Notes: generated from the letters alone by a model not told the origin. 32,000 nucleotides of DNA from Candidatus Hydrogenedentota bacterium (GCA_045863335.1 BTVY01000036.1:39152-71151), one strand, 5' to 3'. Counted from the stretch's first letter, positions 6,852 through 21,866 are shown. Numbers and translations are program-made.

Positions 6852-6898
6852 GGCCGACCGGGGTCACGAACAGCGTTTTGGGACGGTGGGGATTCATC

Positions 6899-9421
6899 AT
6901 GGGCGTGAAGAAGATCGCAGTGCTTGGTGATGTCTGCGCGGACGTTCTGGAGGTATCAACGCCCTCCCGCAAACGGACGCTGAGCGAAACGGTATCGAAC
7001 TGGCGTCTCTATCCGGAAACATACCTCCACATGCTCCCCGGTGGCGCGTTGTTGCTGGCGGAGTTCATTCAAGCAGCGTGTGACGGTGAGGTTGTCGGCT
7101 TGGACGGTGTCGACCTCGACAAGCCTCAGCACGACCGTATCCTCCAATCCCACCTGAAACTCGGCACCTTCCCAAAGACTCTCGGCAGCAAAGAAACCAC
7201 GTTGCGGCTTCGACGGTACGCGGGATTCTCCGGCTCCGAAAATGCGCCACTGCTACCGTGTATCGCAAGCGCTAAGGACGTCTCGCTCCTCGTGCTGGAC
7301 GATCCGGGCAATGGATTCCGGTACGAGCCGTCTGCATGGCAAGCTGCCTTACGCACTTTGCCGAAAAGATCCCCGATTATCCTCAACATGTGCCGTCCAC
7401 TCATGAAGGGGCAATTGTGGGACTACCTTGCCAAGTCGTACCGCGACAATCTGCTGCTCGTCTTGAGCGCGGACGATCTACGGACGGTAGGCGTGCAGAT
7501 CAGCAAGCGCCTATCCTGGGAGCGTACGTCGAAAGATCTCGTTTGGCAGCTGGAGAACAACGTATTGCTTCGTCCGCTTCGTCGATGCGGTCATGTGATT
7601 GTGCGATTTGGCATTGACGCCGCCATATACACGCGAAACACAGGAAAGACGTCGCTGTCCCAACTGTGTTTTGATCCGTCCTCCGTGGAAGACGGCTTTG
7701 CGGAAACAATGCCCGGCACCATGCCGGGATTGACCTATGCCTTGGTCGCATCGCTCGCCGCTGCGATAGACCGGACCGGCAATTTCGAGGAACTGACAAG
7801 CGGAATTCACGCCGGAATTCGTAGTGCGCGCGCTTTGCTCCGTACCGGATTCAAAGTCGAGAACGCGGCCCCCCGTTATCCCATTCCGGAGATCTTTTCA
7901 CCAACCGACTCGGACAAAACCCGTCTCGGTTGTGTCGAAATCAGTCTTACCAAGTCCGGAAAGGATGCCGATCCGGGGTTCTGGCGGATACTGGACCAAC
8001 TCAGCGAAAAACGATTGGAGGAAATGGCCTTCCGAATCGTTCGCCAAGGCGTGGAGAGGTCGCTCGGCGAGGTACCGTCCGGCCGGTTCCGCCATCTTCA
8101 TACGGTCGACCGGGCCGAGATTGAGCACTTTCGCGCGATTCAGAATCTGATGCGGGAGTATGTAAGCCGCGAAAAAACCAAGCGCCCTCTTTGCATTGCG
8201 GTATTTGGGCCTCCCGGTGCTGGGAAGTCTTTTGGGGTCGCGGAAGTCGCAGAAACGGTGGCACCGGGCAAGGTCCGAATGATCGAGTTCAATGTCTCTC
8301 AATTCGATTCCCCGGACGATCTCATCGACGCGCTGCACAAAGTCCGAGATTCCGTTCTCGAAGGGCAAATTCCGTTAGTGTTCTTCGACGAGTTCGATTC
8401 CGGCTACGGCGGAAAACTGGGGTGGCTGAAGTACTTCCTCGCGCCCATGCAAGACGGTAAGTTCAGGGACGGCGAATCGATTCACCCCATTGGCAAATCC
8501 ATCTTCGTGTTCGCCGGAGGCACTCGCGACTCGTTCGAGGCATTCTCCGCGGATGGGGTCCCAGGAACGGCCGAAAGTGCGGGGTGGTTCCGCGATGCTA
8601 AAGGTACCGACTTCGTGAGCCGCCTGCGCGGTTTCGTGGACGTGCTCGGCCCAAATCCGCGCGACGAGAAGGATAAGGTGTTTATCGTTCGACGCGCCAT
8701 GTTGCTTCGATCCCTCTTGGAACGCCTCACACCCCAGTTGGTCGACGACGAAGATTATGCGCGTGTTGATCCGGGCGTGCTGCGCGCACTCATCCACGTG
8801 CCAGATTACCGCCACGGCATACGCTCCATGGAAGCGATACTGGATATGAGTTCCTTGTCGAACGCCCTGTCCTTCGAGCAGGCGGCGCTTCCTCCAGCAA
8901 ACCAACTACGACTCCATGTGGACCCGGAGATCTTCGAACGATTGGTACTTCAGGACGCTTCGTTTGGCGCCGTCCGGGAGCAGCTCGCACAGGCAATTCA
9001 TGAACGCTTTGTCCGAGATCAGGCCGGAAACCGGCCACAGAGTGACGAGGCCATGCAACCGTGGGATGAATTGCTGGAGACCTACAAGGAAGCCAACCGG
9101 CGCCAAGCGGACCACATCCCGGAGAAGCTGAAAGCCATTTCCTGCAGTTTCACTCCTTTCACTCAACAACCAGTTTCCCCCATTAACTTCTCGAAAAAAG
9201 AGATCGAGATAATGGCGCGAATGGAACACGACCGGTGGGTACGAGAACGCCTGGAGGAAGGGTATACCCCAGGTCCCAGAAATCCGATCAAGAAAACCAG
9301 TCCATATTTGGGATCGTGGGAGACACTGGACGACAAGGTGAAGGAATTTGATCGCAATACAGTTCGGGCCATTCCGGATCTGATGACCAGCGTAGGTTTC
9401 CGGATCTATCGGTTGAGCTGA
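6899..9421 (+). CDS. Three-domain protein: ribokinase/PfkB-like N-domain, classical AAA+ ATPase, C-terminal RyR domain
   Basis: ATG at 6899 (GGTGGGGA RBS) inside track ORF 6878..9421. The N-domain has KIAVLGDVCADV, GGALLLAEFI, LLLVLSADDLRTVG and GHVIVRFGIDAAIY in PfkB-like order, but the GAGD anion-hole position reads PGTMPGLTYAL. AAA+ motifs: IAVFGPPGAGKSFG, PLVFFDEFD, IFVFAGGT, DFVSRLRGFVDV. C-terminus: NRRQADHIPEKLKA .. ARMEHDRWVRERLEEGYTPG..TSPYLGSWETLDDKVKEFDRNTVRAIPDL, a bacterial RyR-domain pattern. Confidence 0.7.
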   Translation: MGVKKIAVLGDVCADVLEVSTPSRKRTLSETVSNWRLYPETYLHMLPGGALLLAEFIQAACDGEVVGLDGVDLDKPQHDRILQSHLKLGTFPKTLGSKETTLRLRRYAGFSGSENAPLLPCIASAKDVSLLVLDDPGNGFRYEPSAWQAALRTLPKRSPIILNMCRPLMKGQLWDYLAKSYRDNLLLVLSADDLRTVGVQISKRLSWERTSKDLVWQLENNVLLRPLRRCGHVIVRFGIDAAIYTRNTGKTSLSQLCFDPSSVEDGFAETMPGTMPGLTYALVASLAAAIDRTGNFEELTSGIHAGIRSARALLRTGFKVENAAPRYPIPEIFSPTDSDKTRLGCVEISLTKSGKDADPGFWRILDQLSEKRLEEMAFRIVRQGVERSLGEVPSGRFRHLHTVDRAEIEHFRAIQNLMREYVSREKTKRPLCIAVFGPPGAGKSFGVAEVAETVAPGKVRMIEFNVSQFDSPDDLIDALHKVRDSVLEGQIPLVFFDEFDSGYGGKLGWLKYFLAPMQDGKFRDGESIHPIGKSIFVFAGGTRDSFEAFSADGVPGTAESAGWFRDAKGTDFVSRLRGFVDVLGPNPRDEKDKVFIVRRAMLLRSLLERLTPQLVDDEDYARVDPGVLRALIHVPDYRHGIRSMEAILDMSSLSNALSFEQAALPPANQLRLHVDPEIFERLVLQDASFGAVREQLAQAIHERFVRDQAGNRPQSDEAMQPWDELLETYKEANRRQADHIPEKLKAISCSFTPFTQQPVSPINFSKKEIEIMARMEHDRWVRERLEEGYTPGPRNPIKKTSPYLGSWETLDDKVKEFDRNTVRAIPDLMTSVGFRIYRLS

Positions 9422-9428
9422 TCTGCAA

Positions 9429-11150
9429 TCAGGATTGCTGCATTCCCGCCACTACCAACCGCGGTATGTTACGGACCGCGCTCCGATCGTACTCCTTGAT
9501 GGCGTCCGGCAGTTCGTCATAGGGAACGAGATACGGTGTTTGCCGCCGGCCCACGTCTTTTTCTCCCAACGTCCAACCCGCCAGAAACCGCTCCGCGTTC
9601 CAGCGTGCGTGCTCCATACGCGCAAGTGTTTCCACCCGATCCTCGGGAATCTCCGGCGTCTCCTCCAGTTCCGCGATTGTTCGCACGCGGTACCCCAATG
9701 CGCGAAGCTTCACGGGGATGTGGTCGGCCTGTTGCCGATTGGAGTCCTTGAATTCCGGCGACAACCGATCCCAATCTTCTGTTGATGGACTCTTCTGGCC
9801 GCCGCGCTCCCGCTGTTTGGCCACGTAGTCCTCGTGGATCAGGCGGGCCAGCTTGTCCAGCCCGTCACCCTCCACCATTTCCCAAGAACACGACGAACGC
9901 ATCGATCCGAAGCAGTACATGTTCTGCCCATTCGTGGACGGGGAGAACAAAGCCGCGAGCCCGGAATCCTGGTTTATCCGCACGAACACCGGTACGCTGT
10001 CTCGTTCGACATGACGGCGCACGCTCAGTGCGTACTGCGCGTTTCGCGAATCGTTGTCAAAGCAGATGGCAACACTGCAGATTTCGGCGGGGTCCTGCGC
10101 GATCTCGGCGATACGGCGAAGCGTAAGTGAATCGTCGCATTCGGCGTGGACAAACTCGATATCGCAGACATTGTCCAGCTGGGGGTACCTGACATATAGC
10201 CCCCGCCTTCTCGCCTCCGCCGAATGGTCGACAACCGTGACAGCCAGCCGTTTCCCGTTGGCAACGTGGCCGATCTTTGCTGCTTGAATGAGTAGACTCT
10301 CACCCATCTGCCCCAAACCAAATAAAACCAATCGGATTCGCCGGGGGTCATCCGGGCCAATGTATTCGCGATCCAGGGGATGATCGCGCAATAGAAGGCG
10401 TGAAGCGTTTTCGTAGGAGTTGAAGACCGACACGTTGAACTTCTGTCCGGTCTCGCGGAGCATCGGGTGATCTTTGAACAAAGCCGCAAACGTGAAGTCC
10501 ATCACCTGGACTAGACAACAAAGACGGTGACGGTTGGCGTGCGTTTGGCTCTCATCGAGTATTTCCTTCGTGCGAAGCGCGATCTCGATATTGACCCCGT
10601 CGTTTCCGCAAACCGCTATGGCCGTGCGCGCCCGTTCCACATGCGCCCGGCGAAGGATCGCCTGATGCGTTGCGTCTCCCGTCACCAAGAGAATCCCGGA
10701 GTCCCGCGCGACCGTAAGGCCATCGGCATGAGGATTGGATTCGATGATCGCCACTTTGTGCCCCCGGCTTCTGCATTCCTCCGCCAACTGCAAGCCCCTG
10801 CGCCCGAGTCCGCAGATCACCACATGATTCCGGGCGAGCGCGAGTTGAAGTCCACGCCAGCGATTCCGGATGAATTCAACGAAGATCCGCAGAACCGCCG
10901 ACGCCGCAGTCAACGGCGCAAGAATCCGCGCCACTTCCAGTTGCCACGGAACCGGACCTTCCACGCCTCCGGATTCCATGGTAAAGAGCTGCCAGTCCAG
11001 GTAAACGACATCAAGCACGGTGAGGTTGTATCCCTTCAATTCACCGTGCCGGACAAATCCAACATATCCGAGTACCAACGAGGCTGCTGCAGCGACCGCG
11101 ATCACAATCCATCCACGGCTGACCCTCCACAGGCTTCGAAGTAGATTCAT
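9429..11150 (-). CDS. Membrane protein: 2 TM helices, two TrkA-N/RCK-type Rossmann domains, C-terminal RyR domain
   Basis: Probable start is ATG at 11150 (MNLLRSLWRVSRGWIVIAVAAAASLVLGYVGF; GGTGGAG RBS). The 96 upstream codons of track ORF 9429..11438 are Arg-rich nonsense. The second hydrophobic segment is LEVARILAPLTAASAVLRIFV. Rossmann motifs: HVVICGLGRRGLQLAEE..KVAIIE and IRLVLFGLGQMGESL. C-terminus: NRQQADHIPVKLRA .. ARMEHARWNAERFLAGWTLG..QTPYLVPYDELPDAIKEYDRSAVRNIPRL. Confidence 0.75.
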   Translation of the reverse strand: MNLLRSLWRVSRGWIVIAVAAAASLVLGYVGFVRHGELKGYNLTVLDVVYLDWQLFTMESGGVEGPVPWQLEVARILAPLTAASAVLRIFVEFIRNRWRGLQLALARNHVVICGLGRRGLQLAEECRSRGHKVAIIESNPHADGLTVARDSGILLVTGDATHQAILRRAHVERARTAIAVCGNDGVNIEIALRTKEILDESQTHANRHRLCCLVQVMDFTFAALFKDHPMLRETGQKFNVSVFNSYENASRLLLRDHPLDREYIGPDDPRRIRLVLFGLGQMGESLLIQAAKIGHVANGKRLAVTVVDHSAEARRRGLYVRYPQLDNVCDIEFVHAECDDSLTLRRIAEIAQDPAEICSVAICFDNDSRNAQYALSVRRHVERDSVPVFVRINQDSGLAALFSPSTNGQNMYCFGSMRSSCSWEMVEGDGLDKLARLIHEDYVAKQRERGGQKSPSTEDWDRLSPEFKDSNRQQADHIPVKLRALGYRVRTIAELEETPEIPEDRVETLARMEHARWNAERFLAGWTLGEKDVGRRQTPYLVPYDELPDAIKEYDRSAVRNIPRLVVAGMQQS

Positions 11151-11363
11151 GACACAACTCCACCGTGATGCCCTGAGCATCATTTCCCCGATTTCCCCTG
11201 ATGCGCCAATCTCGCGTGTGGCCACGGGACTATACCATAGACCAGCATTCGCTACAGTCCCGTCTCTTCGACGGTTCCTGGCCCGGCCAATTCCAAACTT
11301 TCGACGATTCGGCAGCGAATCAGATGCCGTATTGATTCTGCTGCGTCTTTGCCGTACCTCGCG

Positions 11364-11369
11364 TATAAT
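11364..11369 (+). promoter_or_regulatory. Candidate -10 box (TATAAT) for the lipoprotein gene
   Basis: Perfect TATAAT 86 nt upstream of the ATG at 11456. There is no convincing -35. Confidence 0.25.
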
Positions 11370-11455
11370 GCCTCTGGGCACGAACGAAGCTGGGGCTAGG
11401 GCCGCTCCCCGTACCGGGGTGCGCGGGTCAGACGTCAATGCTTGGGGGATCCGTC

Positions 11456-12460
11456 ATGCGGAAACTCTCGGAATACGTACTTGGCAGGGAACTACAGTTC
11501 GGTACCGTTTCATCCAGGACACGGCTGCAGCGCTTTCGATCTGTTGCCGGCCGATTCTTGCTCGCTCTCGCAGCCACGAGCATACTGAGTTGCGCACCTG
11601 CCAGCGATGGTTACTCGGTGAGTCAACTCCAAACCAGCGCCGGAACCGAATACCGCATGGAGTGGACGGAAGACGGCGAAACGCGCCACTTCATGACCCT
11701 GATCGAATCCGGTGGCGCCTTGGCGCTACGCCCCCACCCCGGGGTCGACCCGAATGGCTGGGGATCGAGTTGGTACCCGCAGCCCTTCCTGGCGGGGGCG
11801 GTGCTCAGTCACAGTGGCGTGGACTCGGCCATCGCAACAGCGGACGGAATTGAAGTTGCTCTATCCGGAGACGTATCAAGCGACGCCAACGGCACCTACG
11901 GCGCATGGTCGCTCGACATGGTCTTTACCTACGACGCGGTCGCAAAGAAGGTAGCAGGGGACGGCGTACTTTCCATCGCGCTGGATGGACCGATCGGTGC
12001 CGGTACCGGCGATTTGAATCTTTACAGAATCGCGTCGAACTACCTGGACGACGTCCCCTTGCTCAGCGGCGGCATGGGCGATACCGGGGATATGGACTAC
12101 GCGGCGGTCGTCGCCAACGGCTTCAACTTCGACTGGTACCCGCCAATCCAACCGGCCCACTTCCCCTCGGACATGACCGACACCCTTTCCATTGACGTCA
12201 AAGGCCAATACAACGAGGTCGATTCCGCCACGCAGGGCCACGCGCCAATTGCTGCCGCCTATAAGCCCTCATTGAAAGTCGTGCTGAGCACGGACCAGTC
12301 GATCCTCACCTTCGGCGGGTTCTACGACACAAGCGTCGCACAAGACTTCTGGGAAGACAACGTCGGCATCACACCGCTCCTGCGCGTCGGCACAGGTGGA
12401 ACCAATTTCGATTTCGACGTGGACTTCGAATCGATCGCCCTGGCAGGCGACGGGGCGTGA
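11456..12460 (+). CDS. Putative secreted lipoprotein, function unknown
   Basis: ATG at 11456 (GGGGGA RBS) is preferred over 11438. Hydrophobic stretch FLLALAATSILSC with a lipobox-like L-S-C. The mature part is Gly/Asp/Ser-rich and beta-rich looking. No family recognised. Confidence 0.55.
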   Translation: MRKLSEYVLGRELQFGTVSSRTRLQRFRSVAGRFLLALAATSILSCAPASDGYSVSQLQTSAGTEYRMEWTEDGETRHFMTLIESGGALALRPHPGVDPNGWGSSWYPQPFLAGAVLSHSGVDSAIATADGIEVALSGDVSSDANGTYGAWSLDMVFTYDAVAKKVAGDGVLSIALDGPIGAGTGDLNLYRIASNYLDDVPLLSGGMGDTGDMDYAAVVANGFNFDWYPPIQPAHFPSDMTDTLSIDVKGQYNEVDSATQGHAPIAAAYKPSLKVVLSTDQSILTFGGFYDTSVAQDFWEDNVGITPLLRVGTGGTNFDFDVDFESIALAGDGA

Positions 12461-12598
12461 TTAGCTATGATCGAAATACAGGCTGCAGACGAGTGGGTCT
12501 TGGCCTTCGAGGGATCTGTTGCTGTGCTCAATCGAGCGATTCGGTGGGGATGACGTGATCGACCAGCTTACTTGCCCGCAAGTGGACTCCAGGAAAGG

Positions 12599-15500
12599 AT
12601 GACCGAGGTGAAACCCCGCGTTGCCATGATCAGCAGTACGATGCTTGACCTCCCAAATCATCGCAAGAAAGTTAAGGACGCATGCCTAAGTCGCAATATA
12701 CTTCCTATGATGATGGAGAACCTTCCGTCCAGTGATGTCGAAGCGGTTCAGGTGTCTCAAGAGATGGTTGAGCAAGCCAACGTATACATCGGTGTATTCG
12801 CGCACCGTTACGGTCACGTCCCAGATGGATACGACGTTTCAATTACCGAGTTGGAGTTTGATCGCGCACTCGAGCGGAAGATTCCTATCCTGGTTTTTAT
12901 TATGCACGAGAAATACCGGATCCTCCCCGGTACGGTTGAATCGGGTGCAAAGTCCAAACTCGATTCACTGAAGAAACGCGCCTGTGATGGCCGAGTCTGC
13001 AGAACATTCAAGTCGCCCGAGAGCCTAAAAGCAGAGGTCATCAACGCTCTCGCGGACTTGGAACGGAGGGAGACGACGGCAGGACTGCCAATAGCATCCG
13101 AGTGTTATCCCTTCGAGTTGCTATCGCCCGATTGCCGACTGGTACGAGCGCCTGACTCATCGCCAGACAATCCTTTTCCTTCTTGGCAAGAGTACGTCGA
13201 GCAAAAGGTCCCCAAACTGAAAGCAGATGAAATCATACAGGAGCGTCTGAGGTTGCACGGTTGGGCGTCTGTCCTGGATGCCGCCTCTGTTGGAAAGACT
13301 ACGTTGTCGCTTCGGTTAGCGAGCGCTCCCGAGCGGCGGGATAACCCATCCTACTATTTCGACCTTGCCTCCATCGCGGCAATGGACGAGGGCTCTTATC
13401 CGTTGGCTGCATTACGACGGCTTGCCCAACCGGGAACATTCCTAATTCTTGACAATATCCATCATCAGCCAGAACTTGCGCGCGAGCTCTGGACCCTATG
13501 GCGTGCACTAGCTAAGGGAAGCCAATTGCTATTGTTGGCTACGGACATTTTTCGTCCGGTTTTGACCGCGCCCGTCCAGGACCTTGCTTTCTTCAAGAGT
13601 CATTCGGAAAACCCGTCCATAGCACTCCGTCCAGAACCTGAAGACCTATGGCACATTGTCCAGTATCTGCACGAACGGTTGGCCGGAAAAAGTCATGGCG
13701 CATTGCCCAATCCACCCGCGCATGTTCTTACTCGATGGCATCGCGACTTCAGGTGTGCTCTCGGCGCTTTTTGCATCTGGGCCATTGCCGGAATGAGCGA
13801 ATTCAGGCAAGGGTGCTGGAACGTGTCTTTGGAAGCTACCGCTGAATGGGTGCGGAGAAAGTGGCTCAGTGGACTACCCAAATTAGAACGGGAGAACCTC
13901 GAATGCCTCGCGGTATTCGGCGCACAGGAATTTGAGATACAGGTGCCAAGTAACGCGCTGCCTCATCCCCGCAAGTTGGAAAAGCTATTCGCGCGCGATT
14001 TGGTATCGCGCACCCAACGGGGCGGACTCAACCCGTACAACAGCTACGCCCTGCGTGAACCAAGCTGGGGCCAATTGATTATTGCCGCACTCGACGCGCC
14101 GCCTGATGAAGAAGCTGTAATCTTTGACGCGGCGTTACGCGACCCGATCACTGCGTCGATTTTAACTTCGCGGTTGCGGAGCTTGGGCCGTATAGAGTAC
14201 ACAGCGCGTTTGTGGGAACATTTAGCAAAGCAGCCAATTCTCTTCGCGACTCGGGCGACAAAGGTCAAGCTCGAACTCTGGATCCACTTGCTTCGTGCGG
14301 CAAGGGATCAGGATAAAGCGGAACTTGCCGAGCGGCTATGGAACGCATGGGAATCCGAGCCAGAAGCGCTGCTTAAACGAGCTTGGGAGGCGCAACTACA
14401 TTCCTTAGCAGCCTTCGTCGATTCGGCGGAGAAACACGGGCGCGAAACACTCGCCACATTGCTATGGGAGAAGCTGGAGGAGCGTCGTGACGAGTTGTGT
14501 GAACGAGCCATGGAAACCTCACTTGAACAATCAGCGATCTTCCTGGCGATGGCCCGGAAACACGGACACGCAACACTCGCCGTGGCGTTGTGGGACGCGG
14601 TGGAGAAACAGCCCAACGAACTGGCGAAACGAGCCGTGGAAACCTCCCTTGCGTCTACGGCTCGCTTCCTGGCGACGGCCATGGCGCATGAGCGCTTCAC
14701 ACTGGTCGCAACATTGTGGGACAAGCTGGAGGAGTTGGAGAAGGACGACGATGAATTGTCCAAACGAGTCATGGAATCCCCCCTCGACGCTACGGCTCGC
14801 TTCCTGGCGACGGCCATGGCGCATGAGCGCTTCACACTGGTCGCAACATTGTGGGACAAGCTGGAGGAGTTGGAGAAGGACGACGATGAATTGTCCAAAC
14901 GAGTCATGGAATCCCCCCTCGACGCTGCGGCTCACTTCCTGGCGATGGTCGCGAAAGGACGCGCAACACTGGCTACAACGTTGTGGGACAAGTTGGAGAA
15001 ACAGCCCGACGCGTTGGCGCAAAGAGCCTTGGAAACTTCGCTGGAAAAGTTGGCTGGTTTCCTGGCGACGGCCAAAGATCAAGAACGCGCAACCTTGGTC
15101 GCAACGTTGTGGAACAAACTGGAGAAACATGCCGATGCGTTGGCTGATCGAGCTTTGGAAATTTCTCTCGAACATCTGGCCTATTTCCTGGCGACGGCTA
15201 GGAACCACGAGCGCGCAACACTGGTCGAAACGTTGTGGGACAAGCTGGAGAAACAGCCCGACGCGTTGGCGCAAAGAGCCTTGGAAACTTCGCTGGAAAA
15301 GTTGGCTGGTTTCCTGGCGACGGCCAAAGATCAAGAACGCGCAACCTTGGTCGAAACGTTGTGCCGGAGTCTGGAGGAGCAACCAGCAAAACTTGCAAGC
15401 AGAGCAAGAGAAATGAATACCGCCAGTCTCGCGGGATTCCTTATCAATGCGCCGGAGACTCTTGCAAAGTGCGCTATCACAGGATTCACACAAGCCGATT

Positions 15501-16321
15501 GGCAGATTCACGTTGATAGCGGTCGCCCGCTTGTCGGCGCCGCGGCCTTGGCGCAACGTTTTGGCGAGTTAGGTCGCGCTGATCTCCAGGATACAATCGC
15601 GGAGAGCCTTCTGCGGCGCGCCAACTGGCGCGACTTTGGGTGGGTCGATGCGGGGATACCGAGGGTGGCATGGTTACTGGCTAACATTCCGAGCACAGCG
15701 ACTGAAGCTGTACCCCATTTCATCGACGCCATCTGCACAAGGAATTGGTTGAGACGTCAATACAAATATGGAGCGACTGGGCCGATTGCTGGCGGCCTCA
15801 GGGAACTGGCGATGCATCAGCCGCCTGAGATTTGTCAGAGGTTTCATGATTGGAGTTTGGGCCTTCGTTTGAAGCAGGAACTCGAAGAGTTTGCCAATAC
15901 CACTCCGGAGAAGCGGCACCTTACCGTGCAACTTCTGGGTTCCAGCCAACTCGCCGGCTTCCGAATACCACGGGAGTGGCTGCACGGTTTACCCATGGAC
16001 ACTATGGGGCAGCTACCGCTCGCTGCTCTGCCGCATCGTCCCGACGCAATGAAAGTCGAAGACTGGCAATTCAATCTCTGGCTCGGGTTGCGTGTCGTTG
16101 CGTCTTTTGGTTACGCATCCCTTCTAGTCTCCCCTGACGTCGTCGCTGAAACGCTCCGGCTTTGGCAGCTGAATTTGGCAGAGACTTCCGCCACACCGAC
16201 GGCAACTGCCAATAGGGTGAACGCGAGCATGGTTGCGTGGCTCGAAGAATGCGTTGCAACAAGAGATGGAGAACTTGCTCCAAACCAACAGCGGCTGTGG
16301 GAGCTATCAGGCTTCCCGTAG
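12599..16321 (+). CDS. STAND-type P-loop NTPase with N-terminal DUF4062 domain and C-terminal alpha-helical repeat array
   Basis: ATG at 12599 inside track ORF 12572 (TTG)..16321. The N-terminus is a very good DUF4062 pattern: RVAMISSTMLDLPNHRKKVKDACL..PMMMENLP..VYIGVFAHRYGHVP..SITELEFDRALERKIPILVFI. P-loop: LDAASVGKTTLSLRLA. Walker B-like: FLILDNIHH. About 10 repeats of 42-45 aa follow (..FLATA...ER.TLV.TLWDKLE.....L..RA.E.SL..). Confidence 0.8.
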   Translation: MTEVKPRVAMISSTMLDLPNHRKKVKDACLSRNILPMMMENLPSSDVEAVQVSQEMVEQANVYIGVFAHRYGHVPDGYDVSITELEFDRALERKIPILVFIMHEKYRILPGTVESGAKSKLDSLKKRACDGRVCRTFKSPESLKAEVINALADLERRETTAGLPIASECYPFELLSPDCRLVRAPDSSPDNPFPSWQEYVEQKVPKLKADEIIQERLRLHGWASVLDAASVGKTTLSLRLASAPERRDNPSYYFDLASIAAMDEGSYPLAALRRLAQPGTFLILDNIHHQPELARELWTLWRALAKGSQLLLLATDIFRPVLTAPVQDLAFFKSHSENPSIALRPEPEDLWHIVQYLHERLAGKSHGALPNPPAHVLTRWHRDFRCALGAFCIWAIAGMSEFRQGCWNVSLEATAEWVRRKWLSGLPKLERENLECLAVFGAQEFEIQVPSNALPHPRKLEKLFARDLVSRTQRGGLNPYNSYALREPSWGQLIIAALDAPPDEEAVIFDAALRDPITASILTSRLRSLGRIEYTARLWEHLAKQPILFATRATKVKLELWIHLLRAARDQDKAELAERLWNAWESEPEALLKRAWEAQLHSLAAFVDSAEKHGRETLATLLWEKLEERRDELCERAMETSLEQSAIFLAMARKHGHATLAVALWDAVEKQPNELAKRAVETSLASTARFLATAMAHERFTLVATLWDKLEELEKDDDELSKRVMESPLDATARFLATAMAHERFTLVATLWDKLEELEKDDDELSKRVMESPLDAAAHFLAMVAKGRATLATTLWDKLEKQPDALAQRALETSLEKLAGFLATAKDQERATLVATLWNKLEKHADALADRALEISLEHLAYFLATARNHERATLVETLWDKLEKQPDALAQRALETSLEKLAGFLATAKDQERATLVETLCRSLEEQPAKLASRAREMNTASLAGFLINAPETLAKCAITGFTQADWQIHVDSGRPLVGAAALAQRFGELGRADLQDTIAESLLRRANWRDFGWVDAGIPRVAWLLANIPSTATEAVPHFIDAICTRNWLRRQYKYGATGPIAGGLRELAMHQPPEICQRFHDWSLGLRLKQELEEFANTTPEKRHLTVQLLGSSQLAGFRIPREWLHGLPMDTMGQLPLAALPHRPDAMKVEDWQFNLWLGLRVVASFGYASLLVSPDVVAETLRLWQLNLAETSATPTATANRVNASMVAWLEECVATRDGELAPNQQRLWELSGFP
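14200..15440 (+). repeat. Intragenic tandem array of ~126-135 bp (42-45 codon) units, with near-identical and identical copies
   Basis: 14655-14791 is identical to 14790-14926 (135-bp period, perfect). 14977-15111 matches 15229-15363 at a 252-nt offset with 2 mismatches (14993/15245 and 15102/15354). The other units are diverged at DNA level but share the LW.KLE / FLA.A pattern. Confidence 0.95.
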
Positions 16322-16402
16322 CGCCAAGATCCGCCGTTTATCGCTTCACTTCATTTGGCGAAAGTATGCAATCCGGAGGATTGACAGGATCGAGAGGGAA
16401 CC

Positions 16403-17119
16403 ATGGCCCGTAGTTCCACGAGACATACGATTCTGCCTATGCTCTCACATCGGTTCGTGCTGCGGAGGCATACGGAGTATGTCCTGAGTCTGGCGATGTC
16501 GGGGGATGGGCGGCGTTTGGTGAGCGGGGCGATGGACGAGACGGTGCGAGTTTGGGACGCCGGCACCGGCCGGAAGGTGGTGGTGCTTCGTAGTCAGTTG
16601 GTGTTATGCGTTGCGATTTCGCCGGATGGGCGGCGCATCTTCATCGGCAGTAAGGCGGGAACGATCCGCGTGCGGGACGCGGAAACGGGCGAACGGCTCG
16701 CGACGATGCGGGGGCATCGCACTGGTATCTACAACATGTTCTTCCAGAACGGAGACCGGGAGCTGGTGACGTGGGACGTAAATGACGAATCGCGGGTTTG
16801 GGATGCCGCGACCGGCGAATGCCTGGCGTCGGGGCAGCTTCCCGGCACGATGTGGGTCGGCCCGAATGTGCCAGAGGATTGCCCCTATCAATTTACCGAT
16901 CGCGGACAACCCACTGTCATTAGTGACGCCGCCACGGGCGAACCCATAGCCGTGGTCGACCAATCCTTCTCGAGTATTGCCGCCTCGAATACCGGCCGCT
17001 GGGCGGGATCGAACGGTTCGGAGATCTACGTCTTCGACATGGCTGACATCGGCGCGTGCGGCGAGGCTGCGCCGCGAACGTCTGTTCTCCGAGTTCGGCA
17101 TTGGTTACCGAGGCGATGA
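16403..17119 (+). CDS. Short stand-alone WD40-repeat protein (about 4-5 blades)
   Basis: ATG with GAGAGGGAA RBS, 81 nt after the STAND gene. Repeats: HTEYVLSLAMSGDGRRLVSGAMDETVRVWDAGTG, VLCVAISPDGRRIFIGSKAGTIRVRDAETG, GHRTGIYNMFFQ..DRELVTWDVNDESRVWDAATG. Confidence 0.8.
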   Translation: MARSSTRHTILPMLSHRFVLRRHTEYVLSLAMSGDGRRLVSGAMDETVRVWDAGTGRKVVVLRSQLVLCVAISPDGRRIFIGSKAGTIRVRDAETGERLATMRGHRTGIYNMFFQNGDRELVTWDVNDESRVWDAATGECLASGQLPGTMWVGPNVPEDCPYQFTDRGQPTVISDAATGEPIAVVDQSFSSIAASNTGRWAGSNGSEIYVFDMADIGACGEAAPRTSVLRVRHWLPRR

Positions 17120-17438
17120 CGACAGCGTTGGCCAATTTCTTCGGCCAGTTCGCGCGTTGTCGCGTGCAGCCGGGGATTCGTGGGGCGTCGCACAACTGCC
17201 TTCTGGACTTTCCTGCGGGAGGACAAATACGTATACTGTTTGAGCCAGGGACGCGTAAGCGCCGATGCGGTGCGCGCCAGGGTGGCGCTTGGCTCTGATT
17301 CGGGAACACGGACGGCGGAGTTGGACAAACTGGCTGTGGATTCAGTCTGGATTTGCGTACATGCTGGGCCGGGTGTTGCCCATGCCCGTCGGCCCTGATT
17401 TGTTGTGGTCGCGTCCAGCGTCTGCCCTTGCCTGTGCG

Positions 17439-17469
17439 TTGGGACAACAGAACGTCCTCATGCTATACT
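17439..17469 (+). promoter_or_regulatory. Candidate sigma-70-type promoter (TTGGGA-N19-TGcTATACT)
   Basis: TTGGGA at 17439-17444 and extended -10 tgcTATACT at 17461-17469, about 165 nt upstream of the bactofilin ORF. The 19-nt spacer is long. Confidence 0.3.
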
Positions 17470-17633
17470 CGGTTTACCGGAAGTTAGTCACGCGGGAGGA
17501 GAGCAGGGAGTACCCTGCAAATCCCCCCGGGCGCGTCGAAAGCAACGTGTAAGTCTGCGTGAGTCCTTTACTTGTGGCGCGAATCGCCGGCGTGTGCAGC
17601 CGATTTCGCTAACCGACTTGGATACTTTTAAAC

Positions 17634-18380
17634 GTGCTAGACCGGTCCAAACCCAATCGCAATCCCAATCCCTCGACCCCGCAACCGAAGCCTGCTCCGC
17701 CGCCGCAACAGATCCCAGACACCTATGAGGCCTTGGAAGAGGCCGGCAAGAGCGGGGGCCTATTCGGCCGCATGAATCAGGCATTCCAGGAGGCGCTGCA
17801 CACCAGTCGCGGTCCTGGGCGCACGCGCGACGCGGTGGAAGAAGCGGGGGACAGCCCCTCGATAACGGCCGACGACCTGGCCATTCGTCGCGCGCGCAAT
17901 GTGAAACTCCAGCGCATGGTCGTGCCGGAAGGCGTGATCATTGAAGGCAATATGACCAGCGGTTCCGAGACGGAAATCGCGGGGAAGATCGAAGGCAACG
18001 TCACCGTCGAGGGGCGGCTCTACCTGGCGCCCAGCGCACTGGTGTCCGGGAACGTCCGAGCCACGTCATGTCGCGTGGACGGGTTGGTCGAAGGACGTGT
18101 CGAGTGCACTCAGGAACTCGAGTTGGGGAAGACCGGCCGTCTGAGCGCGGACGCCTTGGGCGGCAAGGAAGTGATCATTGGGGGTCAGATATTCGGAGAT
18201 GTGTCCACGGGAGGGGTCGCGCGGCTCCTCGCCACGGCAAAGGTGAACGGCAATATTCGCACGCGGCGCGTTGTTATTGAGGAAGGCGCGTTGTTCAACG
18301 GGTCCTGCACCATGCGGACCCCGGCGCAGCGTAGCGAGAAACAACCGGAAAAGCCGCAGCATGATAGCGCGGGAAGTTGA
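17634..18380 (+). CDS. Bactofilin (DUF583) cytoskeletal protein with Pro-rich N-terminal tail
   Basis: The repetitive beta-helix pattern is typical of bactofilins: IIEGNMTSGSETEIAGKIEGNVTVEGRLYLAPSALVSGNVRATSCRVDGLVEGRVECTQELELGKTGRLSADALGGKEVIIGGQIFGDVST..ARLLATAKVNGNIRTRRVVIEEGALFNGSCTM. The start is uncertain (GTG 17634 or ATG about 17772). Confidence 0.85.
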   Translation: MLDRSKPNRNPNPSTPQPKPAPPPQQIPDTYEALEEAGKSGGLFGRMNQAFQEALHTSRGPGRTRDAVEEAGDSPSITADDLAIRRARNVKLQRMVVPEGVIIEGNMTSGSETEIAGKIEGNVTVEGRLYLAPSALVSGNVRATSCRVDGLVEGRVECTQELELGKTGRLSADALGGKEVIIGGQIFGDVSTGGVARLLATAKVNGNIRTRRVVIEEGALFNGSCTMRTPAQRSEKQPEKPQHDSAGS

Positions 18381-18393
18381 GGAGTAACAAGCC

Positions 18394-19125
18394 GTGCCTG
18401 TCCCGATGTATTTCGATTGGACCCTGATTCTGCTTATCCCCGGCGTCATCCTGTCGCTCTGGGCCCAGTTCAAAGTGAAGTCTACGTACGAGAAGTATTC
18501 GCAGGTCGCCACGCGTTCCGGACTGACCGGCGCGCAGGTGGCGCAGTTGGTCATGGAAAACGCCGAGGTGAAAACCTCCGGCGGCACCCTTCAGCCGGCC
18601 TACGCGACCGGTATTTCGTGCCCGATTAATATGGTCCCCGGACAATTGACGGACCACTACGATCCGCGCAACCGGACCTTGAACCTGTCCGAGGGCGTGT
18701 ACCACGGGCGCAGTGTCGCGGCCCTGGGCGTAGCGGCCCACGAAGTGGGCCATGCGATCCAGCATGCCAACGCGTATTCCGCGCTCATGTGGCGCAACGC
18801 CATTTATCCCATGACCAGCATCAGTTCAACGCTGTCGTGGCCTTTGCTGATCGGCGGACTGTTTTTCGGCATTTCGCCGCTGCTCCACATCGGCATCGCG
18901 CTCTTTTCCGTGGCAGTGTTGTTCACCGTGATCACCTTGCCGGTCGAGTTCGACGCGAGCAAACGGGCCATTCGGGCCCTCGCCCATGGCGGGTATCTGA
19001 CGGACGATGAAATCGTCGGCGCGCGGAGGGTGTTGAACGCAGCCGCATGGACCTACGTCGCTGCCGCGGCCATGGCCGTGTTGCAGTTGCTTCGTCTCAT
19101 TCTGATTGCGCGGGGCCGCGATTAG
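18394..19125 (+). CDS. YugP-like membrane zinc metallopeptidase (Zn_peptidase_2 family)
   Basis: MYFDWTLILLIPGVILSLWAQFKVKSTYEKYS N-terminus, HExxH (AAHEVGHAIQH), C-terminal TM helices and VEFDASKRA. GTG at 18394 has GAGGAG 9 nt upstream; ATG at 18406 is the alternative start. Confidence 0.85.
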   Translation: MPVPMYFDWTLILLIPGVILSLWAQFKVKSTYEKYSQVATRSGLTGAQVAQLVMENAEVKTSGGTLQPAYATGISCPINMVPGQLTDHYDPRNRTLNLSEGVYHGRSVAALGVAAHEVGHAIQHANAYSALMWRNAIYPMTSISSTLSWPLLIGGLFFGISPLLHIGIALFSVAVLFTVITLPVEFDASKRAIRALAHGGYLTDDEIVGARRVLNAAAWTYVAAAAMAVLQLLRLILIARGRD

Positions 19126-19200
19126 TTCCTTCGTGCGAATCGTACCGAAGCGGGTACATTGATACAGCTTAGTTGGGTTTTCCGGAGGCAGTGAGCAGTC

Positions 19201-20310
19201 ATGTCCGGCATCGGCGCCGCAATAGCAATCGCGCTGATTTCGTTGGCGCCGGATACCGCGCTTCGCGAAATGCGCGGCGAAGGACACGCCGCCGGGTTGG
19301 GCCCGGCTGCCCGCGCGGAAGCCATTCGCAACGCCCAGACCGCGATCGTCATCCAACGCCTGGAAGCGCTGGCGCCCACGCGCGACTTCACCGTATTCGC
19401 TCCCGTGATCGAGGGTTCTGAGCGATTCGTTCCGAGCTATCGCGTCCTGAGCGAGGAAGCAACGGATGCCACAACCCACGTCGAGATCGCCGGCGAGTTG
19501 CTTGACGCGCAACTGAAGCATGACGCCGCGAGACTGATTCTCGACAGCCACGTGGACAAGCCAAGAGTCATACTCCTTATCAGCGAGCGTATCTCGCCTG
19601 GCACGCCCCGCTCGTTCCGAGAGGAAGGCGTTGCGGAAGCGGCCCTTGCGGAGAAGCTTTCGGAAGCGAAGTTTGACGTGATCGATTCACGTGACCTCAT
19701 TGCCGTCCAAACGGAGGACGAGTTACAGCAGTTCGTCGGCGGTAGCCCAAACCTGGCGAGCCAACTCGCGCGACGGGAACTTGCCGATGTGGCCATACTC
19801 GGTTCGGCCGTCTCCTTCATGGAGGCCAGCGATTCGCGCGACGCGGGCCTGCACCGGCACCGCGCGGAACTGGACCTTCGCGTCATTCGCGCCGCAGACG
19901 GCATCGTACTGGAAGAGTCTAAAGCCGAAGCGGAATTGATCAGCGTCGACCCGCAACAAGGCGGCGAGCTGTCGGTCCGGGACGCATGCGACAAGGCTGT
20001 GAACGCCATCATCGATGCGGCCGCCCTCGGACTTCTGGGTGGCGCTCCCCGCGGTCAGATCTACCTCACGATCGAGGGCCTGTCCGGCAACACGCAACTC
20101 GACCAAATCCTCGAACACATCAAGGGCGTGCCCGGGGTGGAATCGGTGGAGGAAATGTACACGTCAGCGGAAATGGCGCGCATGGCGATCGCCTATTCCG
20201 GTCCCATGGGACCCTTCGTAGACGCGCTTTCCGCCGACCGTTACGATGGCTACACGTTGCACACCGAAAGCGTCGTCAACCGCGACATGACGGTTAGCGT
20301 TCGTCAGTAA
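19201..20310 (+). CDS. Hypothetical protein (possible exported protein), no family recognised
   Basis: Long ORF with protein-like composition and GGAGG 12 nt upstream of the ATG. Hydrophobic N-terminus MSGIGAAIAIALISLAP. Confidence 0.5.
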   Translation: MSGIGAAIAIALISLAPDTALREMRGEGHAAGLGPAARAEAIRNAQTAIVIQRLEALAPTRDFTVFAPVIEGSERFVPSYRVLSEEATDATTHVEIAGELLDAQLKHDAARLILDSHVDKPRVILLISERISPGTPRSFREEGVAEAALAEKLSEAKFDVIDSRDLIAVQTEDELQQFVGGSPNLASQLARRELADVAILGSAVSFMEASDSRDAGLHRHRAELDLRVIRAADGIVLEESKAEAELISVDPQQGGELSVRDACDKAVNAIIDAAALGLLGGAPRGQIYLTIEGLSGNTQLDQILEHIKGVPGVESVEEMYTSAEMARMAIAYSGPMGPFVDALSADRYDGYTLHTESVVNRDMTVSVRQ

Positions 20311-20359
20311 TCCTCCACCCCAAGAGCGGGATTTCCCCGGCGACCTCTAATGCGTTGCG

Positions 20360-20776
20360 TCAATCTCCCGTTACCGTGACTACGACTCGACGGTTGCGCG
20401 GTTTCACGTCGCATTCCAGATGGAAGATCTGTTGCCATGTCCCCAATACCATCTGCCCATTGCGAATTGGAATCGTGACCGACGGCCCTGCCAGACTCGA
20501 CTGGAGATGGCTGTGGCCGTTGCCGTCGTGCCACGCGTGTTCGTGACCGTAATCGCGGCTTGGTGGTATCAGGCGATCTAACATCTCCGGGTAGTCGCCT
20601 TGAAGGCCCGGCTCAAATTCGATGGTGCCGATGGTCGCCGTGCTTCCGATATTGAATACATGCACAAACCCGGTCTGAACGTGAGAGCGGGACACGATGT
20701 TCTCCACTTGCGCCGTGATGTCGTGCATCACGCCGTGTCCGCTTGTACGGATTGACAGGTCGTCCTGAAAGGTCAA
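20360..20776 (-). CDS. yjbQ: YjbQ/UPF0047 family protein (secondary thiamine-phosphate synthase-like)
   Basis: Only the last 138 codons of track ORF 20360..21178 look real. TTG start at 20776 is preceded by AGGAGG plus 7 nt. Family pattern: ..HDITAQVENIV..GFVHVFNIGSTATIGTIEFEPGLQGD..LIPP..YGHEHAWHDGNGHSHLQSSLAGPSVTIPIRNGQMVLGTWQQIFHLECD..PRNRRVVVTVTG. Confidence 0.85.
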   Translation of the reverse strand: MTFQDDLSIRTSGHGVMHDITAQVENIVSRSHVQTGFVHVFNIGSTATIGTIEFEPGLQGDYPEMLDRLIPPSRDYGHEHAWHDGNGHSHLQSSLAGPSVTIPIRNGQMVLGTWQQIFHLECDVKPRNRRVVVTVTGD

Positions 20777-21046
20777 TGTGACACCTCCTGCGTATGACGC
20801 AATGCGCCACCCGCTTCGGAAACGGCACCGCGCCCGCACCGAGCGCCGCCGGCATCTATCCAGCATAGAAAGCAGTCGCGGCTGGTTCAACAGAAAACAA
20901 TGCGGAGCAGAAGTCCAAACGCAGCTATCGTAGCGTCCTGCCTTCCTTGGCGGGCGAAAAGACCCGTCGAGAATCCATGGATTCGGGTCTCGCCCGGCGT
21001 GGAAGCCGGGCGCTACACGACTTGTGCACGAAGCCGAGCCTTCAAC

Positions 21047-21075
21047 TTGGGATACGCTTCGTGGGTCGCTATACT
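21047..21075 (+). promoter_or_regulatory. Candidate sigma-70-type promoter TTGGGA-N17-TATACT, which would make the radical SAM mRNA leaderless or nearly so
   Basis: TTGGGA at 21047-21052 and TATACT at 21070-21075. The ATG at 21084 begins 9 nt after the -10 and has no SD-like sequence in between. Confidence 0.4.
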
Positions 21076-21083
21076 CCCACGCC

Positions 21084-21866
21084 ATGACCGAGAATGGACC
21101 GAAACCTTCGTCCCCGCCCGCGATCGCGGTGGTTTTTCTGCATGCGGCGTGCAACATGACCTGCACGTTTTGCGGCACGGAAAACAGCGTCGACGGCCTG
21201 ACGCCCGATCAGGCGCGCGACACGCTGCGCGTGATTCTGCAGCGCGGCTTTTCCAATGTCGTGCTCGGCGGTGGCGAACCCTTCGTGTGGAAGCACGATG
21301 TAGTGGCATTGGCACGCGAAGCGAAGGGGATGGGGCTGTTCGTGCAAATCGGCACCAACGGAATCGATCTGCCCCACGGGTTTGAGGCGTTGGCGTGTGT
21401 CGATCGCTTCGTCCTTCCACTCGACGGGTACGATGCCGAATCGCACAACGCGGTGCGCATCGCGCGCGACGGCCATTTCCAACTAATCTTGAACCGGTTG
21501 GAGGCCCTGCGCTCGGCCGGGAAATCCGTCACGGTCTCCACGGTAGTTACATCGCGAAACATCGGCGCACTCAATCGAATAGCCCGACAACTCGCGGAGT
21601 ATGCCGAACGCGGTGGCCAGCTCCACGCCTGGCACCTCTACAAGTTCCTGCCCATCGGCCGCGGCGGCCGCGAGTACGCCGACGAACTTGCGATCTCCGA
21701 CGCGGAGTTTATCGACGCATGTACTTCCGTCAAAGCCGCGCATCCGGCGCTGACCATCTACCGCCGCAACGACATGCGCTTCTCCAGGCACGTAGACTTC
21801 TTCTGGTACGAAGGCGGCAAACCTCAAATCGGCAGCGAAGTCTGGGGACAGGGGACGGTCCTGTAA
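21084..21866 (+). CDS. Radical SAM enzyme, subfamily not assignable
   Basis: MTENG.. start inside track ORF 21024..21866. CxxxCxxC cluster motif (AACNMTCTFCG), GGGEPF SAM-binding motif, no SPASM-type C-terminal Cys cluster. Confidence 0.8.
   Translation: MTENGPKPSSPPAIAVVFLHAACNMTCTFCGTENSVDGLTPDQARDTLRVILQRGFSNVVLGGGEPFVWKHDVVALAREAKGMGLFVQIGTNGIDLPHGFEALACVDRFVLPLDGYDAESHNAVRIARDGHFQLILNRLEALRSAGKSVTVSTVVTSRNIGALNRIARQLAEYAERGGQLHAWHLYKFLPIGRGGREYADELAISDAEFIDACTSVKAAHPALTIYRRNDMRFSRHVDFFWYEGGKPQIGSEVWGQGTVL

Follow-up and report, generated by a model that had tools for sequence, protein, structure and literature searches.

A candidate single-chain immune sensor with a DUF4062 head in Candidatus Hydrogenedentota, and the exchange of heads on its chassis

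What might be the role of a bacterial protein that joins a DUF4062 domain, a P-loop NTPase and a long array of helical repeats in one chain? Such a protein, of 1240 residues, is encoded in the stretch of a Candidatus Hydrogenedentota genome that we analysed here, 32,000 nucleotides in length and with a GC content of 55-63% (GCA_045863335.1, BTVY01000036.1:39152-71151; hereafter the window, with coordinates counted from its first letter). An initial annotation, made from the sequence alone, had proposed a sensor of innate immunity akin to the NOD-like receptors (NLRs). Our characterization agrees with this proposal in the layout of the protein, in which an N-terminal effector position, a STAND-like NTPase and a repeat sensor follow one another, and we consider it probable, with moderate confidence, that the gene encodes a self-contained antiviral STAND (Avs- or NLR-like) sensor with an NAD+-destroying effector. 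The protein is identical to the annotated P0001 (AMXMBFR82_38280) of a metagenome-assembled genome of this lineage, and a look-up returned no record for the exact protein on any other contig. Upstream of the ATG used here (Table 1), an in-frame TTG at 12572 provides an alternative start of the open reading frame (ORF). A scan of the protein and its neighbours against NCBIfam gave nothing usable.

The DUF4062 head and its chassis

What can be discerned about the N-terminal domain? It matches Pfam DUF4062 (PF13271) over residues 10-90 with an E-value of 7.4e-18 and 65 bits against a cut-off of 24.7, as the initial annotation had recognized by eye. Its sole sequence match in the PDB is the DUF4062 structure of KpSwz (10wc_A, E 2.5e-10, residues 9-148), in which Glu84 of our protein pairs with chain position 82, that is, residue 97 of the 16-C construct. 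The column of this glutamate is kept in 17 of 18 aligned DUF4062 domains, and over residues 1-165 the head shares 47-53% identity, as judged by BLAST, with the N-terminal parts of P0025-27, which are DUF4062-STAND-TPR proteins.

The DUF4062 domain has been described as a TIR-like NADase that yields ADP-ribose (ADPR) and nicotinamide (Osinski et al., bioRxiv 10.64898/2026.05.01.722283). In the same work, KpSwz (Swarozyc) of Klebsiella confers protection through abortive infection, with Glu97 required for both NADase activity and defence, and NADase activity is also found for human TEP1, whose layout is DUF4062-NACHT-WD40; activation of the TEP1 domain is concentration-dependent. A second study describes the Evangelion family, composed of DUF4062 and an auxiliary region, and mentions bacterial TEP1-like proteins (bioRxiv 10.64898/2026.06.25.731849). 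The equivalents of the catalytic glutamate are E97 in KpSwz, E1008 in TEP1 and E87 in Eva01. With these two preprints of 2026, the initial annotation's view of DUF4062 as a domain whose biochemical activity has yet to be established has become outdated, and NAD+ hydrolysis can be predicted for the head of the 1240-residue protein. Two fusions that we came across combine TIR or DUF4062 domains with FGE-sulfatase domains: P0028 has the order DUF4062-NACHT-FGE-sulfatase, and a gene at 11107-13461 (minus strand) of locus L023 encodes a TIR domain with two FGE-sulfatase (SUMF1-like) domains. The FGE-sulfatase domain in such TIR or DUF4062 fusions may be a sensor module.

What argues for an effector function of the head is the remainder of the protein. 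Over residues ~160-1240, identity is 36-46% to 23 proteins in which a SIR2_2 domain of ~290 residues stands in the place of DUF4062; in BLAST alignments the DUF4062 matches stop at query positions 147-175, and the matches to SIR2 proteins begin at query positions 160-171, equivalent to subject positions 280-296. The 1240-residue protein itself has no SIR2 domain (PF13289). A profile of this shared portion, which we call the chassis, was scored against 1.84 billion representatives and retrieved 620 proteins at E <= 1e-3, of which 292 reach E <= 1e-30. The chassis family thus counts at least 620 clusters at 50% identity, and no Pfam or PADLOC model matches it.

Which heads does this chassis carry? 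Clustering the N-termini of the 110 listed chassis proteins that keep the boundary gave 62 with SIR2, 35 with a module of ~155 residues that has no Pfam match and shows the motif GWPDA...D.VEAT, and three with DUF4062 (the 1240-residue protein, P0071 and P0125). PNP_UDP_1 and SLFN_AlbA_2 occur once each, and eight N-termini fall into other, unclassified groups. TIR_2 and EAD1 were found in one member each among 40 chassis proteins scanned with Pfam, their place within the protein not being given. The SIR2 heads of P0002-P0024 are closest to human FAM118B (PDB 9r3e, E 2e-30), a sirtuin that forms filaments and for which a link to bacterial antiphage sirtuins has recently been drawn. The ~155-residue module (P0083, P0086, P0091 and 32 others) stands in the effector position and has the consensus ...GWPDA....DG..D.VEAT...; it may be nuclease-like or a new kind of effector domain.

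The nucleotide-binding domain, helical domain and winged-helix domain (NBD-HD-WHD) of the 1240-residue protein are most similar to those of SIR2 members, with a median identity of 41% and a maximum of 51%, versus 26% to the class with the ~155-residue module and 25% to the DUF4062 member P0125, whose own nearest relatives bear other heads. As the NTPase nests among SIR2 members, DUF4062 has replaced SIR2, which is another NADase; and as our protein and P0125 lie far apart, DUF4062 has been joined to the chassis more than once. That one NADase was traded for another while the sensor stayed as it was speaks strongly for the head as the effector, a role that the initial annotation had assigned to DUF4062 and that the comparison supports. 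The head was not taken from a DUF4062 gene resident at the site, as we had considered: those genes carry DUF4062 domains of another type, named here after NWD1, which lack BLAST similarity to the head, and its closest counterparts are those of P0025-27.

The nucleotide switch and the repeat sensor

Is the module that follows the head a STAND NTPase? We took the criteria from Leipe et al. (2004), namely Walker A and B motifs, a sensor-1 arginine, the order NBD-HD-WHD and a superstructure-forming repeat region. The SVGKTT (residues 230-235) and FLILD motifs noted initially are part of a family-wide pattern, in that G-K-[TS] of Walker A and the aspartate of Walker B are invariant in 108 of 108 chassis family members. 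An AlphaFold2 (AF2) model of residues 160-620, built on the family alignment (pLDDT 86.4, pTM 0.81), comprises a P-loop domain of five strands, followed by a helical domain, by a winged helix that bears a β-hairpin, and by helical repeats; in the numbering of the model, helices span 188-283 and a helix/β-hairpin/helix unit spans 302-338. The long helical region that the initial annotation had placed behind the P-loop is present, as is every other element named there, at the coordinates given. In a Foldseek search of the PDB, SAMD9 came first (E 8e-7), and the SIR2-STAND protein EfAvs5 (9jap) matched with an E-value of 4e-6; further matches were the AVAST5 filament (9nc9, TM-score 0.42), NLRC4 and the NB-ARC module of NRC1, with SAMD9, EfAvs5 and AVAST5 all among the top eight. 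Matches below the Pfam thresholds are to nSTAND_NTPase5, seen in 12 of 24 and in 17 of 40 members of the family (its best match scoring 26 bits, E 7e-7, versus a cut-off of 34), and to nSTAND3, the Pfam family of Avs5, seen in 2 of 24 and in 5 of 40. In the 1240-residue protein, Pfam finds only a sub-threshold AAA_14 match (E 2e-3) for the NTPase, and neither NACHT nor NPHP3_N. Judged by the modelled fold, the NTPase appears to have a STAND-like core whose closest counterparts are Avs5 and SAMD9, with no named STAND family assigned.

Several observations weigh against this assignment and against an immune role. No Pfam STAND model (NACHT, NB-ARC, nSTAND1-6) reaches its curated cut-off in the 1240-residue protein, and in this respect the proposal of an NLR-like sensor stands on weaker ground than the initial annotation suggested. 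The same is true of the PADLOC search that the initial annotation had recommended, in which no model matched the protein; neither its NTPase or sensor nor those of eight relatives have a model there, and the PADLOC models ThsA, LmuA and Dsr1 match the SIR2 part of chassis relatives weakly and nothing else. The Foldseek TM-scores are low (0.27-0.42), and generic AAA+ proteins (FtsH, Cdc6/Orc1, MuB) trail the STAND folds by only 10-100-fold in E-value. The residue after the Walker B aspartate is an asparagine and not an acid, as it is in 98 of 108 family members, and the arginine of the STAND 'TT/SR' sensor-1 motif is replaced, the protein reading A314-T315-D316. Full-length NWD1, NWD2 and NPHP3, in which DUF4062 stands beside NACHT, had no NADase activity in vitro (10.64898/2026.05.01.722283). 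Finally, the neighbourhoods of the SIR2 homologues are not recognizable defence islands and consist mostly of ordinary metabolic genes. A sequence search of the PDB with the family profile likewise returned nothing for the NTPase or the sensor, its matches being confined to the SIR2 part of the relatives.

How serious is the altered nucleotide-binding site? The 'TT/SR' arginine contacts the γ-phosphate of ATP in Avs5, Apaf-1 and ZAR1, and an arginine is found at position 315 or 316 in ~75 of 100 chassis family members. With Asp316 and the asparagine behind the Walker B aspartate, nucleotide control may thus differ or be impaired. The protein could then be a recent, non-functional chimera with a damaged switch, kept only because it is young, and two further observations would suit such a history: the exact combination of DUF4062 with this chassis was seen in one genome only, and the site is prone to recombination, relatives having WD40 and DUF4062 fragments there that are duplicated or cut short. 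However, the reading frame is unbroken over 3.7 kb in a genome of 55-58% GC, every other catalytic and structural motif is kept, both AF2 models are confident, and an aspartate occupies the sensor-1 position in seven further family members, with a leucine in one aligned SIR2 member. We therefore regard a defunct recombinant as improbable.

Could the protein instead be a regulatory STAND ATPase outside immunity, such as a MalT-type regulator of metabolism or transcription, turning over NAD+ for housekeeping control? The metabolic neighbours of the SIR2 homologues and the lack of a match in defence databases would fit such a role. Yet the protein has no DNA-binding or regulatory output domain, and the heads of the family (SIR2, TIR-like, PNP, AlbA, EAD1) are typical of conflict systems. 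Chassis genes also lack a conserved operon partner: they stand outside housekeeping operons, a point on which the initial annotation had made its reading depend, and were found always as lone genes among unrelated neighbours. Their distribution is patchy over at least eight phyla or classes (with homologues in Acidobacteriota, Xanthomonas, Methylobacter, Chlorobiaceae, Alphaproteobacteria, Planctomycetes, Verrucomicrobiota and Hydrogenedentota), and the gene of the window sits at a site where such genes replace one another. A housekeeping regulator thus appears to be a very remote prospect.

The sensor of the putative immune protein consists of tandem repeats and a C-terminal tail, in the number of units and approximate length that the initial annotation had given (Table 1). 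Tandem Repeats Finder detects arrays with periods of 135 and 126 nt at 14627-15363. Pairwise protein identity peaks at 98%, between units 7 and 9, whose DNA is likewise 98% identical; units 5 and 6 share 89% and units 4 and 5 share 83% of their DNA sequence. The number of units varies from 3 to 11 among chassis homologues. This turnover looks as would be expected for a recognition surface under changing selection. An AF2 model of residues 600-1240 is all-helical (pLDDT 91.2), with three helices per 42-residue unit, and the solenoid runs on through the tail, which is family-specific and 34-43% identical to that of SIR2-class members. In a fold search the sensor matched only generic solenoids (exportins, β-catenin, designed ARM proteins) at E ~1e-3, so that no ligand can be inferred from it.

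Table 1. Features of the 1240-residue protein, its gene and the surrounding genes (window coordinates)
Feature	Residues	Coordinates	Strand	Basis or remark
Gene of the 1240-aa DUF4062-NTPase-repeat protein	1-1240	12599..16321	+	ORF list; ATG 12599 preceded by AGGAAAGG
DUF4062 TIR-like domain with trailing helix, predicted effector	7-161	12617..13081	+	Pfam PF13271; KpSwz 10wc_A; P0025-27
Glu84 codon, counterpart of KpSwz catalytic Glu97	84	12848..12850	+	alignment to 10wc_A; DUF4062 alignment
Junction/linker	~160-204	13076..13210	+	BLAST boundaries
P-loop nucleotide-binding domain	~205-345	13211..13633	+	AF2 strands, motif conservation, sub-threshold Pfam
Walker A, AASVGKTT	228-235	13280-13303	+	
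Walker B (FLILD = 281-285)	281-286	13439-13456	+	
Sensor-1 strand, LLLLATD	310-316			
Helical and winged-helix domains, completing a NOD-like module	~346-500	13634..14098	+	AF2, Foldseek
Ten tandem 42-45 aa three-helix ARM-like repeats, predicted ligand-binding solenoid	538-963	14210..15487	+	repeat alignment, Tandem Repeats Finder, AF2
Conserved helical C-terminal region (277 aa)	964-1240	15488..16318	+	family alignments, AF2
238-aa WD40 gene		16403-17119	+	Pfam WD40, E 8e-18
Bactofilin and Zn_peptidase_2 genes, conserved right flank		17634-19125	+	followed by 368-369-aa gene and UPF0047/YjbQ; ordinary chromosomal genes
340-aa predicted lipoprotein gene, conserved left flank		11438..12460	+	orthologues, 69-77% identical, precede different STAND genes in L019 and L020
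Two-transmembrane-segment, TrkA_N (RCK), RyR protein, channel-like		9429..11438	-	TrkA_N E 8e-22, RyR E 1.5e-13; hydrophobic segments
847-aa protein: N-terminal half without assignment, AAA ATPase, C-terminal RyR		6878..9421	+	Pfam AAA, RyR

A variable site and its WD40 and RyR neighbours

Does the sensor act with a partner encoded nearby? The WD40 gene that the initial annotation placed 81 nt downstream begins after a gap of exactly that length (16322-16402), on the same strand, with a ribosome-binding site of its own and no terminator-like site in between. A two-gene system could be imagined on this basis, in which the WD40 protein serves in trans as sensor or adaptor, in a split version of the eukaryotic DUF4062-NACHT-WD40 layout of NWD1 and TEP1. 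Among the loci with WD40 orthologues, an intact 304-residue DUF4062 protein of the NWD type stands 33 nt before the orthologue in L018, and a remnant of such a protein precedes it in L017; in relatives, a DUF4062-NACHT gene overlaps a WD40 gene at this very site (L020). However, the WD40 gene has no relative at any of the 14 chassis homologue loci, including one with another DUF4062 version (L014), so that conservation downstream of homologues, which would have strengthened the annotated pair, does not hold. The NWD-type DUF4062 domains (L018, L019, L020) show no BLAST similarity to that of the 1240-residue protein, which moreover has a sensor of ~700 residues already. The WD40 protein does have close orthologues of its own, at 70-88% identity, and one of their loci (L017, GCA_964632865.1) is syntenic with window positions 16448-21854 at 86-90% nucleotide identity, through the WD40, bactofilin, Zn peptidase, 368-369-residue and YjbQ genes. 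There the synteny halts at the start of the WD40 gene and leaves the STAND gene outside; what lies upstream is the C-terminal motif of the NWD-type DUF4062 protein. All in all, a partnership with the WD40 protein seems most improbable to us, and we return to the single-chain sensor as the preferred reading.

Two related candidates were dropped. The last kilobase before the WD40 gene in L017 is not the tail of a STAND homologue, as it gave no tblastn match and contains the NWD-type motif instead. A 95-residue ORF at 17265-17552 had been weighed as a conserved companion of the WD40 gene; it is without a Pfam match, and all that it matches is the syntenic spacer before bactofilin in L017.

How, then, did the WD40 gene come to lie here? 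In L020, the lipoprotein gene is followed by an 841-residue DUF4062-NACHT/nSTAND1/WHD_NWD1 gene that overlaps a gene for a 1096-residue WD40 protein; in L019, the genes behind it are those of an 816-residue orthologue and of a WD40-like protein of 646 residues, together with two small WD40 genes whose DNA is 88-90% identical to that of the WD40 gene of the window. The flanks of these relatives with other STAND genes at the site are 73-90% identical in nucleotide sequence. Different genes beside the same lipoprotein gene mark the interval between lipoprotein and bactofilin as a variable slot for NLR-like genes, and comparison of the loci suggests that an NWD1-like split system has been replaced here by the DUF4062-chassis gene. 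As a DUF4062-NACHT and WD40 split system occupies the same site in relatives, the small WD40 gene probably represents a remnant of the NWD1-like set and not a partner of the 1240-residue protein. The genes of 816-841 residues for DUF4062-NACHT/WHD_NWD1 proteins, together with the large WD40 genes, form a bacterial split version of the NWD1/TEP1 layout. Small WD40 genes are doubled per locus and some are truncated (L015/L019, 6602-8705; L017, 1061-2755), and a motif of ~46 residues, RRDIxFIDRHxTTLFQCMW, recurs at the start of WD40 segments; both suggest frequent recombination among NWD-like genes.

On the other side of the lipoprotein gene, the window encodes two proteins with RyR domains, AAA-RyR and TrkA-RyR, in convergent orientation. 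According to two preprints of 2026, phage proteins with RyR domains bind or cleave 2'/3' cyclic ADP-ribose (cADPR) (RyDEP, PMC13232231; RyR Tad, 10.64898/2026.06.04.730250), and RyR (PF02026) domains of phage proteins also bind ADPR-type ligands. This raises the prospect of a Thoeris-like system, in which the DUF4062-STAND protein would make ADP-ribose or an ADPR-derived signal, and the two RyR proteins would sense it and act as executors, for example by depolarizing the membrane. Is there a pattern to support it? A scan of metagenome contigs for TrkA-RyR relatives yielded 34 loci, and neighbours were assessed in those with enough flanking sequence. A DUF4062 ORF lies 150 nt downstream of a TrkA-RyR homologue on the same strand (L028), three RyR proteins are encoded between two DUF4062-STAND-WD40 giants (L030), a gene for a 2110-residue DUF4062-AAA_16-WD40 protein stands 2 kb from a RyR gene (L045-47), the TIR-FGE-sulfatase gene of L023 adjoins a TrkA-RyR homologue, and an nSTAND1-WD40 gene belongs to the same array as another (L037). 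The convergent AAA-RyR/TrkA-RyR pair recurs in L033, with related pairs in L023, L030 and L038. Among four plasmid records with RyR genes that we inspected, an Arcobacter plasmid (CP146529.1) has a same-strand TrkA_N-like/RyR/DUF4062 cassette inside a defence island, on a Methylobacterium plasmid a giant SIR2 protein accompanies a RyR protein, and on a Priestia plasmid the distance between a RyR gene and the gene of a TIR protein is 1.3 kb; the RyR gene of the Fulvitalea plasmid shows no pairing with a TIR-like or SIR2 gene. Apart from the window, at least seven independent loci thus have RyR genes beside DUF4062, TIR or SIR2 genes, with an operon-like arrangement in two (L028 and CP146529.1), and both RyR genes of the window are missing from syntenic relatives without this STAND gene. 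In the TrkA-RyR protein, the RyR domain matches the RyR R12 structure 6uhi with an E-value of 1e-22.

Against such a signalling system stands that the RyR genes do not form one operon with the STAND gene, TrkA-RyR being divergent and the conserved lipoprotein gene lying in between, and that the 248 kb surrounding 20 chassis or WD40 homologue loci contain no RyR gene. The DUF4062 enzymes tested so far yield only ADPR and nicotinamide and no cyclic products, the second ligand-binding histidine of RyDEP is a threonine or serine in the RyR domains of the window, and genomes rich in STAND genes raise the odds of accidental adjacency. The two DUF4062 preprints (10.64898/2026.05.01.722283 and 10.64898/2026.06.25.731849) do not mention RyR, and we found no literature on host RyR-domain proteins in defence. 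We hence consider the Thoeris-like scheme unlikely, if by no means negligible, and keep to the single-chain sensor. If the scheme were true, however, host RyR proteins would be the receivers of an NAD+-derived signal from TIR-like STAND sensors and would define a new Thoeris-like class of defence, and such host-side receivers would bear on the origin of cADPR and ryanodine-receptor signalling.

Several apparently conserved neighbour clusters in the RyR loci were discarded as antisense ORFs of RyR genes in GC-rich DNA. SUMF1 genes occur near the RyR gene of the Fulvitalea plasmid. Just upstream of the AAA-RyR gene of the window, a 625-residue ORF (4891-6768, plus strand) has no Pfam match and no counterpart in syntenic relatives; it may belong to the same variable block as the RyR genes.

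A proposed mechanism and its relation to known systems

How would a single-chain sensor of this kind work? In the scenario we propose, for which the NADase chemistry of DUF4062 and the precedent of Avs5 are taken from the literature, the C-terminal α-solenoid of ~700 residues, that is, the ten ARM-like repeats and the tail, would keep the NTPase module closed in the resting state. Binding of a phage protein to the solenoid would free this module, and the ATP-bound assembly of P-loop, helical and winged-helix domains would oligomerize. The oligomer would gather the N-terminal DUF4062 domains, which would thereby turn active and destroy NAD+, and the loss of NAD+ would halt phage replication in the manner of abortive infection. 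Our analysis itself establishes the domain layout, the retention of catalytic and nucleotide-binding residues, the common chassis with its exchangeable heads, the turnover of the repeats and the variable site in the genome; the defence phenotype, the nature of the trigger and the ligand-triggered oligomerization are all predicted here by analogy.

The implications reach beyond this one gene. The presence of DUF4062 in the place of SIR2 on one chassis provides independent comparative support for the claim of 2026 that this domain is an NADase warhead. A large STAND-like family with exchangeable heads can supply defence screens directly with candidates, and a new effector may hide in the ~155-residue head that 35 of its members carry. 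The locus also documents a chromosomal site at which unrelated NLR-like genes replace each other between close relatives, and its RyR neighbours lead to a testable idea, namely that RyR domains serve as host-side signal receivers besides their role in phage counter-defence.

Where does the protein stand among known systems? The human antiviral STAND proteins SAMD9 and SAMD9L provide the best fold match of the NTPase module, and in SAMD9, too, a P-loop NTPase and helical repeats are found in one chain, together with a SIR2-like region. However, sequence identity is ~10% and the TM-scores are low, and SAMD9 adds SAM, AlbA and OB modules and has another effector. With TEP1, NWD1, NWD2, NPHP3 and the bacterial TEP1-like proteins, our protein shares a DUF4062 domain N-terminal to a STAND NTPase, and TEP1/NWD1-like genes occupy the same genomic site in relatives of the source organism. 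It differs from them in the subtype of DUF4062, which is without BLAST similarity to the NWD type, in an NTPase that is not a Pfam NACHT, in ARM-like repeats in the place of WD40, and in the lack of a TROVE domain. Thoeris is called to mind by a TIR-like, predicted NAD+-processing enzyme encoded near RyR proteins, now that RyR is known to bind ADPR-derived signals, but DUF4062 is not known to make a signal molecule, the genes here are not one operon, and RyR domains are so far known only as sponges or glycosidases of phage counter-defence and not as host effectors. KpSwz (Swarozyc) and Eva01 (Evangelion) have a homologous DUF4062 domain with the catalytic glutamate, and the predicted output, NAD+ depletion and abortive infection, would be the same. 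Those proteins are of ~300 residues, with a short auxiliary region and no NTPase; whereas KpSwz is activated by assembly on the phage portal, here the STAND NTPase and repeat sensor would activate the head.

Avs5 (AVAST type 5) matches the overall architecture: like the 1240-residue protein, it is a single chain with an N-terminal NADase effector (a predicted one in our protein), NBD-HD-WHD and a C-terminal α-helical repeat sensor. Its structures (9jap, 9nc9) are among the best fold matches of the NTPase, its Pfam effector, SIR2_2, sits on most chassis relatives, and nSTAND3 leaves a weak signal in the family. Avs5 depletes NAD+ after sensing a phage protein and needs Walker A, Walker B and the sensor to do so (EfAvs5, PaAvs5), and PaAvs5 has itself been reported to resemble SAMD9. 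The differences are that the effector here is DUF4062 and not SIR2, that no Pfam or PADLOC model ties the NTPase to Avs5 above threshold, that the 'TTR' arginine is missing, and that the sensor, with its 42-residue three-helix repeats and tail, extends over ~700 residues, whereas that of EfAvs5 is unusually short. Thus, the kind of system to which the gene appears to belong is known, and what our comparison presents as new is a DUF4062 head on a chassis family that has not been described before.

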